Source: a virus (Duplodnaviria > Heunggongvirae > Uroviricota > Caudoviricetes). Taken from it: 58,025 bases of DNA. Position 1 is the stretch's first letter, and each line of letters begins with the position of its first letter. The stretch spans positions 1-58,025 of the IMG/VR virus record IMGVR_UViG_2859821903_000003; one strand, given 5' to 3'. This document shows positions 20,857 to 54,022 of the stretch, piece after piece. A program made the position numbers and the translations under genes. Below the pieces are notes generated by a model that was given only the letters and a program-made list of their open reading frames with translations, made no database searches and was not told where the DNA came from.

Positions 20857-21438
20857 TTACTCTGCAGGTGAAGTCGGCCACTCAATATCAGGTGCAGTTG
20901 ATGTATCAACACGGTTCAGCAACACCCGATACTTTTTCCAGGCTTCCAGCAATGAGGTTTCTTCCTCCGTTGCAATTTCCAGATCTGCAGCATCCTGAAG
21001 CGGCGCAATATGCTCACTGGCTACCTGCATCAGGTTGTTTTTTGTTTCTTCCGCCTCCCGGATCCGGAACAGTTTTTCTGCTTCCGTATCCTTCACCCAG
21101 GCTGTGCCGTTCCACTTCTGAAACTCCCCTTCCGGCGATAACCAGGTAACATTTTCCGGTAACGGACCGAGTTCAGAAATAAATAACGCGTCGCCGGAAG
21201 CCACGTCATAAACCGTTTTACCCCGATGGTCTTCAAAGAGATGCCACGATGACTCATCACTGTTGAAAACAGCCACGAAGCCTGCCGGAATATCTAACGG
21301 TGCAATATCGGTACTGTTTGCAGGCAGACCTGTATGAGGCGGAATATATGCGTCACCTTCACCAATAAATTCATTAGTTCCGGCCAGCAGATTATAAATT
21401 TTTATGGTCCGTGGTTGTTCACTCATTCTGAATGCCAT
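20857..21438 (-). CDS. tfa: Tail fiber assembly protein
   Basis: 193 aa ORF immediately after the side tail fiber gene, conserved position. Confidence 0.75.
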
Positions 21439-48570: not shown

Positions 48571-48897
48571 ATGACTAAAAATACTCGTTTTTCCCCCGAA
48601 GTCCGTCAGAGGGCGATTCGTATGGTTCTGGAAAGTCAGGGCGAATATGACTCACAGTGGGCGGCAATTTGTTCCATTGCCCCAAAGATTGGCTGTACAC
48701 CGGAGACTCTGCGTGTCTGGGTACGCCAGCATGAGCGGGATACCGGAGGCGGTGATGGAGGGCTCACCACCGCTGAACGTCAGCGTCTGAAAGAGCTGGA
48801 GCGTGAAAATCGTGAACTGCGCCGCAGTAACGATATCCTTCGCCAGGCTTCCGCTTATTTTGCGAAGGCGGAGTTCGACCGCCTCTGGAAAAAATGA
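48571..48897 (+). CDS. IS629 OrfA
   Basis: 108 aa [31 protein letters not shown]…. Confidence 0.9.
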
Positions 48898-49784
48898 TGC
48901 CACTGCTGGATAAGCTGCGTGAGCAGTACGGGGTCGGACCGCTATGCAGCGAACTGCATATTGCCCCGTCAACGTATTACCACTGTCAGCAACAGCGACA
49001 TCATCCGGATAAACGCAGTGCCCGTGCGCAGCGCGATGACTGGCTGAAGAAAGAGATACTGCGCGTATACGATGGGAATCATCAGGTATACGGTGTGCGT
49101 AAAGTCTGGCGTCAGTTGTTACGGGAAGGTATCAGAGTGGCCAGATGCACTGTGGCACGTCTCATGGCGGTTATGGGACTTGCCGGTGTTCTCCGGGGTA
49201 AAAAGGTCCGTACGACCATCAGCCGGACAGCCGTTGCCGCAGGCGACCGCGTAAACCGTCAGTTCGTGGCAGAACGACCTGACCAGCTGTGGGTGGCTGA
49301 TTTTACTTACGTCAGCACATGGCAGGGCTTCGTCTATGTGGCGTTTATCATTGATGTGTTTGCCGGATACATTGTGGGGTGGCGGGTCTCATCGTCCATG
49401 GAGACGACATTCGTGCTGGATGCACTGGAGCAGGCGTTATGGGCCCGTCGACCGTCCGGCACGGTCCATCACAGTGATAAAGGTTCTCAGTATGTATCGC
49501 TGGCCTACACACAGCGGCTTAAGGAAGCCGGATTACTGGCATCAACAGGAAGTACAGGCGACTCGTATGACAACGCGATGGCGGAGAGCATCAATGGTCT
49601 TTACAAAGCGGAGGTAATACACCGTAAGAGCTGGAAAAACCGTGCAGAAGTGGAACTGGCCACACTCACGTGGGTGGACTGGTATAACAATCGACGATTG
49701 CTGGAAAGGCTGGGCCATACTCCTCCGGCAGAAGCAGAAAAAGCTTATTATGCTTCCATCGGAAACGATGATCTGGCAGCCTGA
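48894..49784 (+). CDS. IS629 OrfB transposase (DDE)
   Basis: 296 aa ORF overlapping orfA; IS3-family arrangement. Confidence 0.9.
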
Positions 49785-50045
49785 GTTCACAGATAAAACA
49801 CTCTCCAGGAAACCCGGGGCGGTTCATCCAGTTCCATTGCACGAAGTTTGGGAATAACTGCTTTCCACCGCACAACAGCCACATGTGAAATTCCAAGAGC
49901 CTCAGCTACTAGTCGCTTTTTTTTGAAATAGCGCAGAACATCATCTTTGAACATAAAACTCTCCTGTTATTTCGAGCAGAAGGGTAACAATAGTTACACA
50001 ACAATGTCAACCATAGCAACATCACTTGGTAGTAACATTGGTTAC

Positions 50046-50720
50046 ATGAAAAACACTATCAGCGAACGTATTCGGAATCGTCGAAAAGACGTTGGATTAA
50101 CCCAACAGCAGGTTGCGAAAGCAATCGGCATATCTCGTGTATCCGTAACAAAATGGGAAAATGGCTCTTCAAAACCTGACGGTGAGAATTTGTATCTACT
50201 GTCAAAATTGCTTTCCAAATCTCCTGAATGGATTCTTTATGGAAAGGACAGTCACGATAAAACCGATGATCTGCGTCTGAATCAGTACCCTTACATTAGT
50301 GACAACATCGCCCGGTTGCCCGTTTTAACGTGGGAACAGGCTGGTTATTGGGATATGAGTTGTCCAGTAACCAAGATTCCTGGTATTAATAACTGGGTTG
50401 ATGTCATGACAAAAACCGCTGAAAACTCTTTTTTATTGCATGTTGAGGGAGATGCGATGACAAACTCTAACGGCCTCCCAACCATCCCCGACGGATCTAC
50501 CGTGCTGATCACACCATGCTCAAGTAACATTAGAGAACTGGTGGGAAAAATAATCTTAATCCAATTGGAAGGAACGCCAAACGTAACACTAAAAAAAGTT
50601 GCGATTGACGGACCAAACATCTATCTGTTGTCACTGAATCCGCTTTACAAACCCATCGAACTGAATGGTGGTTACACCATTAAAGGTAAAGTTTCACAAA
50701 TACATCAATACTTAGACTGA
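50046..50720 (+). CDS. CI-like prophage repressor (HTH + S24 LexA-like peptidase domain)
   Basis: HTH LTQQQVAKAIGISRVSVTKWENG; C-terminal autocleavage-like domain; start taken at MKNTISERIRNRRK. Confidence 0.75.
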   Translation: MKNTISERIRNRRKDVGLTQQQVAKAIGISRVSVTKWENGSSKPDGENLYLLSKLLSKSPEWILYGKDSHDKTDDLRLNQYPYISDNIARLPVLTWEQAGYWDMSCPVTKIPGINNWVDVMTKTAENSFLLHVEGDAMTNSNGLPTIPDGSTVLITPCSSNIRELVGKIILIQLEGTPNVTLKKVAIDGPNIYLLSLNPLYKPIELNGGYTIKGKVSQIHQYLD

Positions 50721-50991: not shown

Positions 50992-51147
50992 ATGGATACT
51001 ATCGATCTTGGCAACAGCGAATCTCTGGTATGTGGCGTGTTCCCCAACCAGGACGGTACGTTCACCGCGATGACGTATACCAAAAGCAAAACGTTTAAAA
51101 CCGAAAATGGTGCCCGTCGCTGGCTGGAAAGAAACTCAGGTGAGTGA
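50992..51147 (+). CDS. Small prophage protein, YdaF-like (tentative)
   Basis: 51 aa MDTIDLGNSESLVCGVFPNQDGTFTAMTYTKSK…; resembles Rac YdaF from memory. Confidence 0.4.
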   Translation: MDTIDLGNSESLVCGVFPNQDGTFTAMTYTKSKTFKTENGARRWLERNSGE

Positions 51148-51148
51148 T

Positions 51149-51277
51149 ATGGATTTCGACACAATCATGGAAAAGGCTTACGAAGAATACTTCGAAGGTC
51201 TTGCCGAAGGCGAAGAAGCTCTCAGCTTCAACGAATTTAAACAGGCGCTTTCCAGTTCGGCAAAATCTAACGGCTGA
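51149..51277 (+). CDS. Small acidic prophage protein, YdaG-like (tentative)
   Basis: 42 aa ORF (MDFDTIMEKAYEEYFEGLAEGEE…) read directly from the DNA; below the ORF-track cutoff. Confidence 0.35.
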   Translation: MDFDTIMEKAYEEYFEGLAEGEEALSFNEFKQALSSSAKSNG

Positions 51278-51306: not shown

Positions 51307-51525
51307 ATGCAGAAACGAGAACCCGTCATCATCGCGCCAGACTATACCGATGATGAACTTTATGAGTGGATGCACCAGAAAATTAATGCAGCGCAGGATC
51401 TGAAATGGGCCAATGAAGCCAGGGCTAAGCAGGCTGAAAATCTGTCCGCTCTGGAGCAGGATATCACTAATCTGGAAAAAGCAGCGGCATTAAGCATTGC
51501 CAGAATGATTACATACCCGCGTTAA
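51307..51525 (+). CDS. Hypothetical early-left protein (72 aa)
   Basis: ORF only. Confidence 0.3.
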   Translation: MQKREPVIIAPDYTDDELYEWMHQKINAAQDLKWANEARAKQAENLSALEQDITNLEKAAALSIARMITYPR

Positions 51526-51547: not shown

Positions 51548-51922
51548 ATGGAATTTAAAGATTTACCAATGCAATTCCAGGAAATGGCAGCGAATATAGT
51601 TCGTTCCCAACTGGCGACTCTTGACCTGAGTACCGTAGAAAAAGAAACCATCGATACTATATCCGGTAACGTGCGTCGTGCCTTTATCGGTCTGTGCGAA
51701 GAGAAGCAGCTCTCTGATAACCAGGATTTACATGAAAAATACTTCCTGGAATTAATGGACATCATTAATAAAGGATTTGGCTTGTTAATGAAAAAGAAAG
51801 GGATTCGAATAGCTCCCCTTGAAAATCATTTTACAGCAAGCAGTATTAATTCCTGTGATTTAAAGCATCACACATCCGATGGGAAAGTTGAATCAAACAA
51901 CAAAAGATCAATTAATCATTAA
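51548..51922 (+). CDS. Hypothetical early-left protein (124 aa)
   Basis: ORF only. Confidence 0.35.
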   Translation: MEFKDLPMQFQEMAANIVRSQLATLDLSTVEKETIDTISGNVRRAFIGLCEEKQLSDNQDLHEKYFLELMDIINKGFGLLMKKKGIRIAPLENHFTASSINSCDLKHHTSDGKVESNNKRSINH

Positions 51923-51929
51923 TTTATTC

Positions 51930-52265
51930 ACAGGTGAGGTAGAGTGCGTGCGCCGGACACGGATAAGAATCCGGCACTGACAGTTTACTGAAAAGGATAT
52001 ATCCCTGAAAAGTCAGGGCATAACGCGAAAGCGCACGGCGAAGTTCGTCTCTCTGTAGGTAGTCGTTAAATTTAATTCGACCGTGCGCTTCCGGTTGTGG
52101 CAATCCGCGAAATGGCGCGGCGGTAAGTATGGCGGGGTTATTCCTTCCCCGCTGAGGACACTGGGTTGTCAGGTTGACCATACGCTTAAGTGACAACCCC
52201 GCTGCAACGCCCTCTGTTATCACTTTTCTGGTGATTCGGCGGAAACGGATATCCGCCCTTTTTAA
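51930..52265 (+). other. About 340 bp structured non-coding region ending in a terminator-like hairpin; candidate ncRNA or degraded locus
   Basis: Several local hairpins (51953-51974, 52001-52017, 52038-52101, 52163-52198) and GGCGGAAACGGATATCCGCC + CTTTTT at 52237-52262. Confidence 0.3.
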
Positions 52266-52572
52266 AGTGAATTTTGTGATGCGGTGAATGCGGCTATGCG
52301 CACGCGGAACAGTTAAAGCAGTAAGGCGGTATTTTACGGGCGTAACGAGCATCAACTAATCCGGCGTTAATTGTTAACTGGTTAACGTCACCTGGAGGCA
52401 CAAGGCACTGCATCACAAAATTCATTGTTGAGGACGCGATAATGGAAACGTTATTACCAAACGTTAATACGTCTGAAGGTTGTTTTGAAATTGGTGTCAC
52501 TATCAGTAACCCTGTATTTACTGAAGATGCCATTAACAAGAGAAAACACGAACGGGAGTTATTAAATAAAAT

Positions 52573-52761
52573 ATGCATTCTTTCAATGCTGGCCCGTTTA
52601 CGTCCGATACAAAAAGGATGCTGGCAATGAATACAGCATTTGCACTTATTCTGACATTTTTTCTTGTTTCCGGAGAGCCAGTTGATATTGCAGTCAGTGT
52701 TCACAGGACAATGCAGGAGTGTGTGACTGCAGCAACCGAACAGAAAATTCCCGGTAACTGA
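52573..52761 (+). pseudogene. Small hydrophobic-N-terminus protein gene truncated by IS600
   Basis: The ORF stop is supplied by the IS600 end; reading across the 3-bp AAC duplication continues …KIPGNCYPVDKVIHQDNN. Confidence 0.35.
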
Positions 52762-54022
52762 GGTGTACTGGCAATAGCGGACACTACCATTTGTTCTTTT
52801 TTTAAGCAGCCATCTGATGATATTTTTCCCTGAAGGCTGCCGGGGAGATATTCCCCAGACGAGAGTGACGACGCTGACGATTGTAGAAAATCTCAATGTA
52901 TTCCCGTATTACTGAGATGGCTTCATCCCGGTTATTAAAACGATAGTGGCTCAGGCTCTCATTTTTCAGCGTTCCCCAGAAGCTTTCCATCGGAGCGTTG
53001 TCGTAACAGTGACCTTTACGCGACATTGATGTTTTCAGACCAGACTGCTCCTGTATGACCCGGTAATCGTATGCGCAGTACTGTGAACCTCGATCAGAGT
53101 GGTGGATTAGCCCGGCAGGTGGGCGCTGGCTCCTGAGCGCCATAAACAGGACTTTACCTGTCAGCTCTTTTGTCATGCGCTCTCCCATGGCGTAGCCGAC
53201 AATTTCGCACGTATAAACATCTTTGATGCCAGCGAGGTACAACCATCCCTCCTGTGTGGCAACATACGTCAGGTCCGCCACCCAGACCTGATTTGGTGCT
53301 GTAGGAGCGAACGTCTGGTTCAGCAGATTTGGCGCAACTGGCAGATTGTGGTTCGGGTTCGTAGTCGCTCTGAACTTGCGTTTCTGCTTACAGCGTAGCC
53401 TTAGCTCCTTACGAAGACGTGCCAGTCTGTCACGACCAACGATGATGCCATTCTCTGCCAGCTCCGTCTGGAGCCGCCGGGTTCCATATGTTTCGCGAGT
53501 GCGGATATGTGCCACCTTAATCTCCAGTTTTAGCCGCTCATCACTTTGTTTTCTGTCTGAGGGTTCATGCTGTACCCAGTTGTAATAACCGCTCCTGGAT
53601 ACACCAAATACCTGACACATCGCTTCAATGGGAAATTGTTGTCGCCATTGTTCGATTAACGCGTATTTTTCAGCGACTCCTGTGCAAAATACGCTGTTGC
53701 TTTTTTTAATATATTTCGCTCAAGGCGAGCTTCATTTAACGCCTTACGCAGTTGCAGAATTTCAGATTCCAGTTCAGCCACCGTGCGGGAACCAGGAGTA
53801 CCGAGCCCTTTTCTGGCGGCGGTAACCCATTGTCCTAAAGTGCCTTCAGGAAGGGATAATCGGGAAGCGCCTTCACTGATCGAAAGTTGATTTTCAAGAA
53901 CCGTTCTGACAGCTTCGGCTTTGAACTCTTTAGAGTAACGTTGGTTTTTTCTGCTCATTATTAGCTCCTTCTGATGCCATTCTATTTCAGAAAGGAGTGT
54001 CCGTTAAACTCAGGCTACCTCA
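52759..54022 (-). mobile_element. IS600 copy 2 (1264 bp), intact, 3-bp AAC target duplication
   Basis: Complete ends; orfA 53656-53958 and orfB 52802-53620 (272 aa) on the minus strand. Confidence 0.9.

Follow-up and report, generated by a model that had tools for sequence, protein, structure and literature searches.

Gene context and identity of the ydfC-dicB spacer

We describe here a structured, untranslated region in a Caudoviricetes sequence of 58,025 nt (record IMGVR_UViG_2859821903_000003); this whole stretch is referred to below as the window, and all coordinates are positions in it. The region (51923-52441, plus strand) very probably forms the spacer between ydfC and dicB in an early-left operon of the dicBF (Qin) type, within a degraded lambdoid prophage, and bears a shortened allele of the small RNA DicF. 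That degree of confidence applies to our proposal as a whole, which comprises the identity of the locus, a stepwise processing of its RNA and a short DicF allele of altered or minimal function. The locus was known before, as were its gene context and the logic of its processing, and what we add is a new allele of a known small RNA. Homology, synteny, conservation of structure, the terminator and the loss of pairing segments were established in this analysis. The RNase III step, the RNase E step and target pairing are taken from the K-12 literature, and for the window allele we infer cleavage positions, expression and function.

The operon reads in the order ydfA-ydfB-ydfC-[RNA]-dicB-ydfD on the plus strand, as supported by Pfam matches and by the PGAP gene names in K-12 and in a 99.5% identical E. 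coli locus (L002). Its first gene, ydfA (50992-51147), encodes a DUF1391 protein (Pfam), and is followed by ydfB (51149-51277) and ydfC (51307-51525), both taken from the list of open reading frames (ORFs) and named in the same way. The gene for a CI-type prophage repressor (49947-50720, plus strand; Pfam HTH_3, E = 4e-17, and Peptidase_S24, E = 2.5e-16) lies upstream of the operon's putative pL-like promoter, and in the immunity region of this prophage the cro side has been replaced by an IS3-family insertion sequence (IS) element (48571-49784). Between ydfC and the RNA region, and ending just before the latter, is a 124-aa ORF of unassigned function (51548-51922, plus strand). A Pfam scan of this ORF gave no family above threshold, and PGAP calls it a 'hypothetical protein' in the 99.5% identical locus; it is missing from K-12 Qin and from phage Tritos, which have about 36 unrelated bases at that place instead.

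On the other side of the RNA region, dicB (52442-52630, plus strand) is intact, and its 62-aa product matches Pfam DicB (PF05358) over positions 1-62 of 62 (E = 1.7e-37). The ydfD gene (52627-52761, plus strand), identified by its Pfam DUF1482 match and by the gene order in K-12 and L002, has its start placed from the 4-base dicB/ydfD overlap in K-12. Its 3' end is truncated by an IS3-family element, the 'IS600' of a preliminary description of this DNA, which starts at about 52762 and has its transposase ORFs (52802-53620 and 53656-53958) on the minus strand. An exonuclease gene, xis and int follow, up to the end of the window. The window is IS-dense elsewhere too, with three ALIL frameshift pseudoknots of the IS3-family type (34196-34312, 43540-43656 and 48852-48968, plus strand), an IS009 RNA (20897-21095, minus strand) and a sok antitoxin RNA (43030-43205, minus strand).

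The spacer was identified as a dicF locus from its position between ydfC and dicB of a dicBF-type prophage operon and from homology of the non-coding sequence around the small RNA. A megablast search with 51900-52300 gave matches in 4571 of the 5426 complete E. coli genomes and in 51 phage records, one of which, that of phage Tritos, annotates a 'DicF antisense sRNA' beneath the match. When the window, K-12 Qin and Tritos were aligned, mean column identity was 92% over 581 columns, and the annotated DicF (NC_000913.3 1649382-1649434 in K-12) fell at the homologous position. Except for a few replaced stretches, the spacer is more than 90% identical to that of E. coli K-12.

The preliminary description, which was drawn from the letters of the sequence, had proposed a structured segment with no convincing plus-strand ORF and had suggested that it might be a phage small RNA. 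Our results agree with all three points. The DNA is non-coding from the stop of the 124-aa ORF at 51922 to the dicB start at 52442, the part at 51923-52270 folds at -126.8 kcal/mol compared with -110.1 ± 5.7 kcal/mol for dinucleotide shuffles (z = -2.96), and a phage small-RNA locus is what the assignment to dicF implies. The same description had placed a hairpin of about 60 nt at 52038-52101, which is real but forms part of a larger 21-bp interrupted helix (52019-52041 with 52077-52099, in 49 related sequences). It had also recognised a GC hairpin followed by CTTTTT, which our terminator scan recovered at 52238-52257; its right-hand boundary of 52265 was set too early, as the structured non-coding region runs on to the dicB start.

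The short DicF allele and its proposed maturation

The allele in the window, which we call type B, is a predicted RNA of about 40 nt (UUUUCUGGUGAUUCGGCGGAAACGGAUAUCCGCCCUUUUU; ~52224-52263, plus strand) made up of a 5' seed, a terminator hairpin and a U-tail. A consensus scan identified the intrinsic terminator (full extent 52238-52263) as a GGCGGA/TCCGCC hairpin followed by CTTTTT; its 6-bp stem has five G-C pairs and encloses an 8-nt loop, and it supplies the Rho-independent 3' end that is characteristic of DicF. The 5' end retains the single-stranded UUUCUGGUGA seed, that is the first 10 nt of K-12 DicF. In comparison with K-12 DicF (UUUCUGGUGACGUUUGGCGGUAUCAGUUUUACUCCGUGACUGCUCUGCCGCCCUUUUU), the window allele (UUUCUGGUGAUUCGGCGGAAACGGAUAUCCGCCCUUUUU) is 19 nt shorter, and its middle has been replaced rather than simply deleted: the two are identical through GGUGA, after which the window reads AUUCGG and K-12 reads ACGUUUGG. 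A search of 51700-52500 returned no Rfam DicF match at E <= 10, so that the allele falls short of the gathering threshold of 48 bits, while K-12 DicF, the positive control, scored 76.7 bits.

In K-12, DicF pairs with xylR through its 5' end and with ftsZ and pykA through its 3' part (PMC5069750). The ftsZ/pykA-pairing segment is absent or replaced in the window allele, and the xylR seed has been cut from 12 contiguous pairs to the first five. Target duplexes were evaluated in 18-nt sliding windows against 100 shuffles; these replaced whole-molecule duplex energies with ftsZ, xylR and pykA, which gave long, unrealistic duplexes no better than shuffles. This recovered the K-12 DicF site for xylR, where nt 6-18 include 12 contiguous pairs at -20.4 kcal/mol and 2 of 100 shuffles do as well, and that for pykA (nt 26-43, -22.5 kcal/mol, equalled by 0 of 100 shuffles). 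For the window allele, the best 18-nt duplexes with pykA and ftsZ were no better than shuffles, and the duplex with xylR was weaker than that of K-12 and lay elsewhere (-16.4 kcal/mol, equalled by 8 of 100 shuffles). Since it lacks the ftsZ/pykA segment and most of the xylR seed, the window allele would be unlikely to inhibit cell division in the manner of K-12 DicF. It may instead be either a retargeted small RNA or little beyond an operon-internal terminator.

K-12 DicF is cut from the dicBp transcript by RNase III, on which a 190-nt species depends, and then by RNase E, which gives the 53-nt form (PMC10448788). Sequence prerequisites for both events are present in the window, namely the 21-bp helix, which we call H3, and an RN|WUU motif at 52222-52226. 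H3 is a long interrupted hairpin (52019-52099, plus strand; RNAalifold) with a variable apical part. Counting 190 nt back from the K-12 DicF 3' end leads to window positions 52088-52092, within the 3' arm of H3, and from this mapping we infer that H3 is the counterpart of the K-12 RNase III site that generates the 5' end of the 190-nt species. Further upstream, the 5' part of the spacer (51923-52018, plus strand) is conserved in sequence in 46 homologues, and a single-sequence fold predicts two small hairpins there (GCCGGA/TCCGGC, 51952-51975; CCCUGA/UCAGGG, 52003-52018). The alignment fold did not recover these and proposed other small helices with little covariation, which leaves the two hairpins without independent support.

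The second event would take place in an A/U-rich linker (52209-52223, plus strand), predicted to be single-stranded, whose end is homologous in position to the K-12 DicF 5' end. Reading the sequence together with the folds, we predict an RNase E site at this end, where A52222 C52223 / U52224 fits RN|WUU; by the same reading, AUCAC (52219-52223) can pair with GUGAU (52231-52235). This pairing is a property of the allele. Two substitutions, A to C at 52223 and C to U at 52235, convert the AUCAA...GUGAC of K-12 into the AUCAC...GUGAU of the window (52219-52235), and both create pairs, giving a 5-bp hairpin around UUUUCUG that encloses the U-rich seed.

Based upon these observations, we propose that a polycistronic transcript from a CI-repressed promoter upstream of ydfA would include the spacer. 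RNase III would cut H3 to leave a precursor of about 175 nt (190 nt in K-12), consisting of a conserved four-helix, possibly pseudoknotted domain and the terminator-bearing small RNA. RNase E would then cut the A/U-rich linker (at ~52223/52224) and release the small RNA of about 40 nt, with a 3' end formed by the intrinsic terminator. Transcripts that read through the terminator would form a second long duplex, to be cut again, and would lead on into dicB. The product would be a DicF-like RNA of ~40 nt without the known anti-ftsZ and anti-pykA determinants and without most of the anti-xylR ones.

The second duplex belongs to the dicB leader (52264-52441, plus strand), in which a 21-bp long-range pairing of 52266-52286 with 52402-52425 encloses small hairpins; a fold of 52224-52445 gave z = -3.32. 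In K-12, RNase III also makes a 72-nt DicF 3' variant from read-through RNA (PMC5069750), the end of which would fall within the post-terminator duplex, and the leader duplex is likely to be a second RNase III site. A hairpin of the leader that reads CCUGG-AGGCA-CCAGG in K-12 and Tritos has a C to A change in the window (CAAGG; 52392-52400), which breaks one pair. The leader also aligns end to end, below threshold, with the STnc100 family (RF02076; window 52256-52474, plus strand, 22.9 bits), as does the same place in K-12 (L003 1933-2142; 34.4 bits), and phage P1 has a partial match upstream of tciA (L004 3342-3461; model positions 31-147, 33.4 bits). STnc100-like leaders may thus recur as a prophage element before division-inhibitor or tci genes. 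A full STnc100 (137.6 bits) is found in the window at 37374-37564 (minus strand), just downstream of three tRNA genes (37644-37890, minus strand). It lies between a DNA methylase ORF (37931-38989) and a 462-aa ORF (35763-37151), which is a Stx-phage-type late-region layout without the toxin gene.

Several points weigh against our proposal. The prophage is heavily disrupted by IS elements and the operon may therefore be silent; a sigma-70 scan between cI and ydfA gave no strong match, and the upstream promoter region is presumed. Expression and processing of the window allele in its host are deduced from sequence, and maturation might be changed or prevented by the 5-bp hairpin, which covers the predicted RNase E site. 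Finally, the 18-nt duplexes failed to separate even the validated K-12 DicF-ftsZ pairing from shuffles, and for this reason the loss of ftsZ pairing is argued from the absence of the published pairing segment and not from duplex energies.

It is a real, if doubtful, possibility that the DicF-like cassette is a decayed, non-functional remnant in a dead prophage, kept by recent common descent only. At least two IS elements break the prophage, the CACCAGG to CACAAGG change weakens the dicB-leader hairpin in comparison with K-12 and Tritos, and the allele lacks all three of the validated K-12 pairing regions. Nor is its distribution informative: a 91-nt query centred on the allele was covered to at least 80% in 442 of the 5426 complete E. 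coli genomes (~8%), but these include many near-identical O157:H7 strains among those listed. On the other hand, the terminator is a clean 6-bp G+C stem with a tail of five U, the 5' seed has been kept, and dicB and the domain upstream of the linker are intact. Both allele-specific substitutions make pairs (AUCAC/GUGAU), which does not resemble random damage, and an IMG/VR prophage (L035) has the same allele with a changed loop and in another upstream context. A short DicF allele of altered or minimal function is the interpretation that we retain.

The allele has been missed by model-based annotation, both by the Rfam DicF model and by PGAP, which annotates nothing in the spacer of the 99.5% identical E. 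coli genome; no annotated feature lies under any E. coli genome match of the allele among the matches listed. In O157:H7, DicF copy number is linked to virulence regulation. With this allele present but unannotated in about 8% of complete E. coli genomes, any tally of 'dicF copies', and any conclusion on ftsZ control, hinges on which allele a genome has.

A conserved core domain in front of variable cassettes

Between H3 and the linker lies a core domain of about 115 nt (52094-52208, plus strand) that is more conserved than DicF itself or than whichever cassette stands behind it. We modelled the core as four helices with a possible pseudoknot, tested this structure on 72 distinct homologues and also made a covariance model of the core (R1). 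Its elements, all on the plus strand, are the closing helix (52094-52101/52201-52208), H4 (52105-52109/52116-52120), P5a (52121-52124/52160-52163), H5 (52133-52137/52147-52151) and H6 (52164-52171/52191-52198), and the possible pseudoknot joins GUAUGG of a linker (52127-52132) to CCAUAC of the H6 loop (52178-52183). Across the 72 homologues, 95.8% of cells were paired, compared with 31-56% in controls in which the partners were slid by 1-3 columns, and six pairs were altered on both sides. This covariation is supportive but not conclusive, because the homologues are closely related. For the pseudoknot, more than 180 copies were either GUAUGG/CCAUAC (102) or GCAUGG/CCAUGC (74), with three wobble and three mismatch states, which is the equivalent of a single compensatory change. 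In IMG/VR, three scans with degenerate patterns brought up no linker/loop states but these two and a few wobble or mismatch singletons, the remaining matches being unrelated G+C-rich DNA. An alternative pairing from the minimum free energy fold, of GCGGU (52120-52124) with GCUGC (52201-52205), was judged less likely by inspection; GCUAC and GCCAC variants break it and strengthen the closing helix. The GUUGUG that forms the 5' strand of the closing helix is also the base of the H3 3' arm. These two pairings are mutually exclusive, and RNase III cleavage could thus act as a switch between the lower stem of H3 and the closing helix.

No Rfam family covers the core in the window, in K-12 or in P1, and neither a gathering-threshold scan of the whole window nor the scan of the region at E <= 10 gave a family for 51923-52255. 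Despite the cloverleaf-like topology of the core, ARAGORN found no tRNA or tmRNA in it. With model R1 the score is 173.6 bits for the window, 179.2 bits for Tritos and 94.1 bits for phage P1, and a blastn search recovered 510 plasmid records with the core, most of them P1-like phage-plasmids ~95 kb in size. The P1 record itself annotates a 'dicF-like region' between the C1-controlled ban promoter, which lies just before it, and a strong terminator, with two tRNA genes, the tci genes and ban further on. The P1 core (L004 1981-2155; AF234172 68719-68893) starts within ~25 nt of the C1-controlled ban promoters, and the strong terminator behind it is GCCCAUCUUCGGGUGGGC plus U6, with tRNA-Asn, tRNA-Thr, the tci genes and ban beyond. 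That P1 also has the core, in its ban leader, suggests a role that is not confined to DicF.

What stands behind the core varies. An exact-pattern scan of the genome and IMG/VR collections yielded 134 core copies, biased to close relatives by a pattern that fixes the H6 loop. Of these, 104 are followed by canonical DicF, 15 by the terminator of P1 type and four by the short type of the window, and at least five further cassettes occur once or twice each; overall there are at least seven different terminator cassettes. Prophages in which the core precedes different terminator cassettes include L079 (9509-9708), L106 (4761-4960), L039 (4537-4736), L009 (4591-4790), L044 (5559-5758) and L062 (5138-5337). 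Some of the rare cassettes join a new 5' end to the 3' half of DicF, which pairs with ftsZ; others have nothing in common with DicF but a GGCGG...CCGCC terminator. A conserved domain with swappable cassettes suggests that prophages diversify the seeds of their small RNAs and leave a single scaffold for biogenesis in place. In the literature covered, neither the short allele, with its failure to match the Rfam model, nor an explicit model of a core with exchangeable cassettes in common with P1 appears to have been described; an earlier description is possible.

As to function, we favour the core as a scaffold for processing and stability, and it may also shield the ~520 nt of untranslated RNA from Rho. 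A wider idea, which we raise tentatively and think rather unlikely, is that the core is an unclassified phage RNA element, a constant 'platform' before interchangeable terminator/small-RNA cassettes in Qin-type lambdoid prophages and about 500 P1-like phage-plasmids. Such an element would direct either processing and release, or read-through by RNA polymerase as an antiterminator that is non-homologous to put.

Quite improbable, in our judgement, is that the core is a cis-acting RNA which modifies RNA polymerase or the terminator, that is a put-like antiterminator or terminator modulator letting early-left transcription reach dicB, exo, xis and int, with the small RNA as a by-product. Its position would suit such a role. 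The core is always immediately upstream of an intrinsic terminator, in an operon whose later genes need expression, and in the viable phage Tritos dicB, ydfD, exonuclease VIII, xis and int all lie downstream of it. In P1 it directly follows the ban promoter, ahead of the terminator and the genes listed above. Moreover, none of ydfA, ydfB and ydfC obviously encodes an N-like protein, conservation is much stronger in the core than in the cassette that follows, and the HK022 put RNAs hold an analogous position (PMC9378689). However, R1 finds nothing in the HK022 genome at E <= 10, and HK022 is not among the blastn matches listed. Where HK022 possesses putL as well as putR, Tritos has a single copy of the core and its rightward operon lacks one; the core, moreover, has four helices and put two stem-loops. 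In wild-type K-12 it is the terminated ydfABC-dicF transcript that predominates, and termination must therefore be efficient (PMC10448788). The lack of an R1 match in HK022 and of a second copy in Tritos led us to reject membership of the put family, and a processing and stability scaffold is the role that we prefer for the core.

Two further explanations disregard DicF altogether. The terminator lies, as had been noted at the outset, inside a long antisense ORF (143 aa; 51924-52355, minus strand), and the preliminary description had argued that this ORF is not a gene. We concur, and consider it extremely improbable that the ORF is real and the RNA structure incidental. It is the longest ORF across the region, and some phage records annotate a 'hypothetical protein' over homologous DNA. 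However, it has no Pfam match, it corresponds in K-12 to two ORFs in different frames, and in the 99.5% identical genome PGAP has left this DNA unannotated. The variable columns show no third-position bias (22, 23 and 23 at antisense codon positions 3, 2 and 1), the spacing of conserved anchors varies from 50 to 55 nt, and the gaps between window and K-12 inside the ORF are of 1, 3, 2, 17, 1 and 8 nt. Substitutions, for their part, preserve base pairs of the plus-strand RNA. The ORF was rejected as a gene on the Pfam, K-12 frame-split, codon-position and anchor-spacing evidence.

The other suggestion, namely that the segment is an RNA of the retron msr/msd type, or of some other RNA-guided module, left behind when IS600 removed its protein partner, deserves virtually no credence and was rejected on gene context: beyond a general look of stacked hairpins beside an IS element, the neighbours are ydfABC, the 124-aa ORF, dicB, ydfD and the IS transposase, with no reverse-transcriptase gene in the operon; the operon context is conserved without a reverse transcriptase or nuclease, intact K-12 and Tritos loci continuing with ydfD, exonuclease, xis and int; the IS element lies 500 bp downstream, beyond an intact dicB, and truncates only ydfD; and the Rfam scan of 51700-52500 at E <= 10, a check which the preliminary description had itself proposed, gave no retron or guide-RNA family and only the one weak STnc100 match.

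Comparison with known systems

The closest known system is K-12 DicF (RF00039) with its 190-nt precursor. The window locus shares with it the operon, the position between ydfC and dicB and flanks that are more than 90% identical, as well as the first 10 nt, a G+C terminator with CCGCCCUUUUU, the upstream RNase III hairpin and the long duplex downstream. It differs in that the allele is 19 nt shorter, the stretch from the seed to the 3' half of the terminator having been replaced and the ftsZ/pykA-pairing nucleotides lost, and in the extra 124-aa ORF between ydfC and the RNA region.

The 'dicF-like region' of phage P1 (AF234172 68791-68892, in the ban operon leader) resembles the core in H4, P5a, H5 and H6, with a near-identical H6 loop (GGUUGACCAURCGCYUAAG), several compensatory pair changes, an intrinsic terminator that follows and a match to R1. 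Unlike the window, however, P1 has its core right after the promoter with no RNase III hairpin upstream, its closing helix is poorly supported, its terminator cassette is unrelated to DicF, and tRNA genes, not dicB, come next.

Likeness to the HK022 put RNAs is confined to position, in that both are structured RNAs early in a repressor-controlled operon, before terminators and with no obvious N protein; there is no detectable similarity in sequence or structure, and each phage has one copy of the core. The dicB leader aligns with the STnc100 model, including the outer helix and the CACCNGGAGGCACNNGGCAC hairpin, but its score is below the gathering threshold of 47 bits.

In its maturation, the proposed DicF-like RNA would be most readily compared with SroC, CpxQ and MicL, which are processed by RNase E from operons or 3' untranslated regions. 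In RNase E-processed small RNAs the cleavage site is flanked by stem-loops (reviewed in PMC9438474), and the window has the same arrangement of an internal terminator, an upstream candidate RNase E cut and flanking stem-loops. The dicF locus is distinguished from these RNAs by a prior RNase III step and by a large structured domain between the two cleavage sites.

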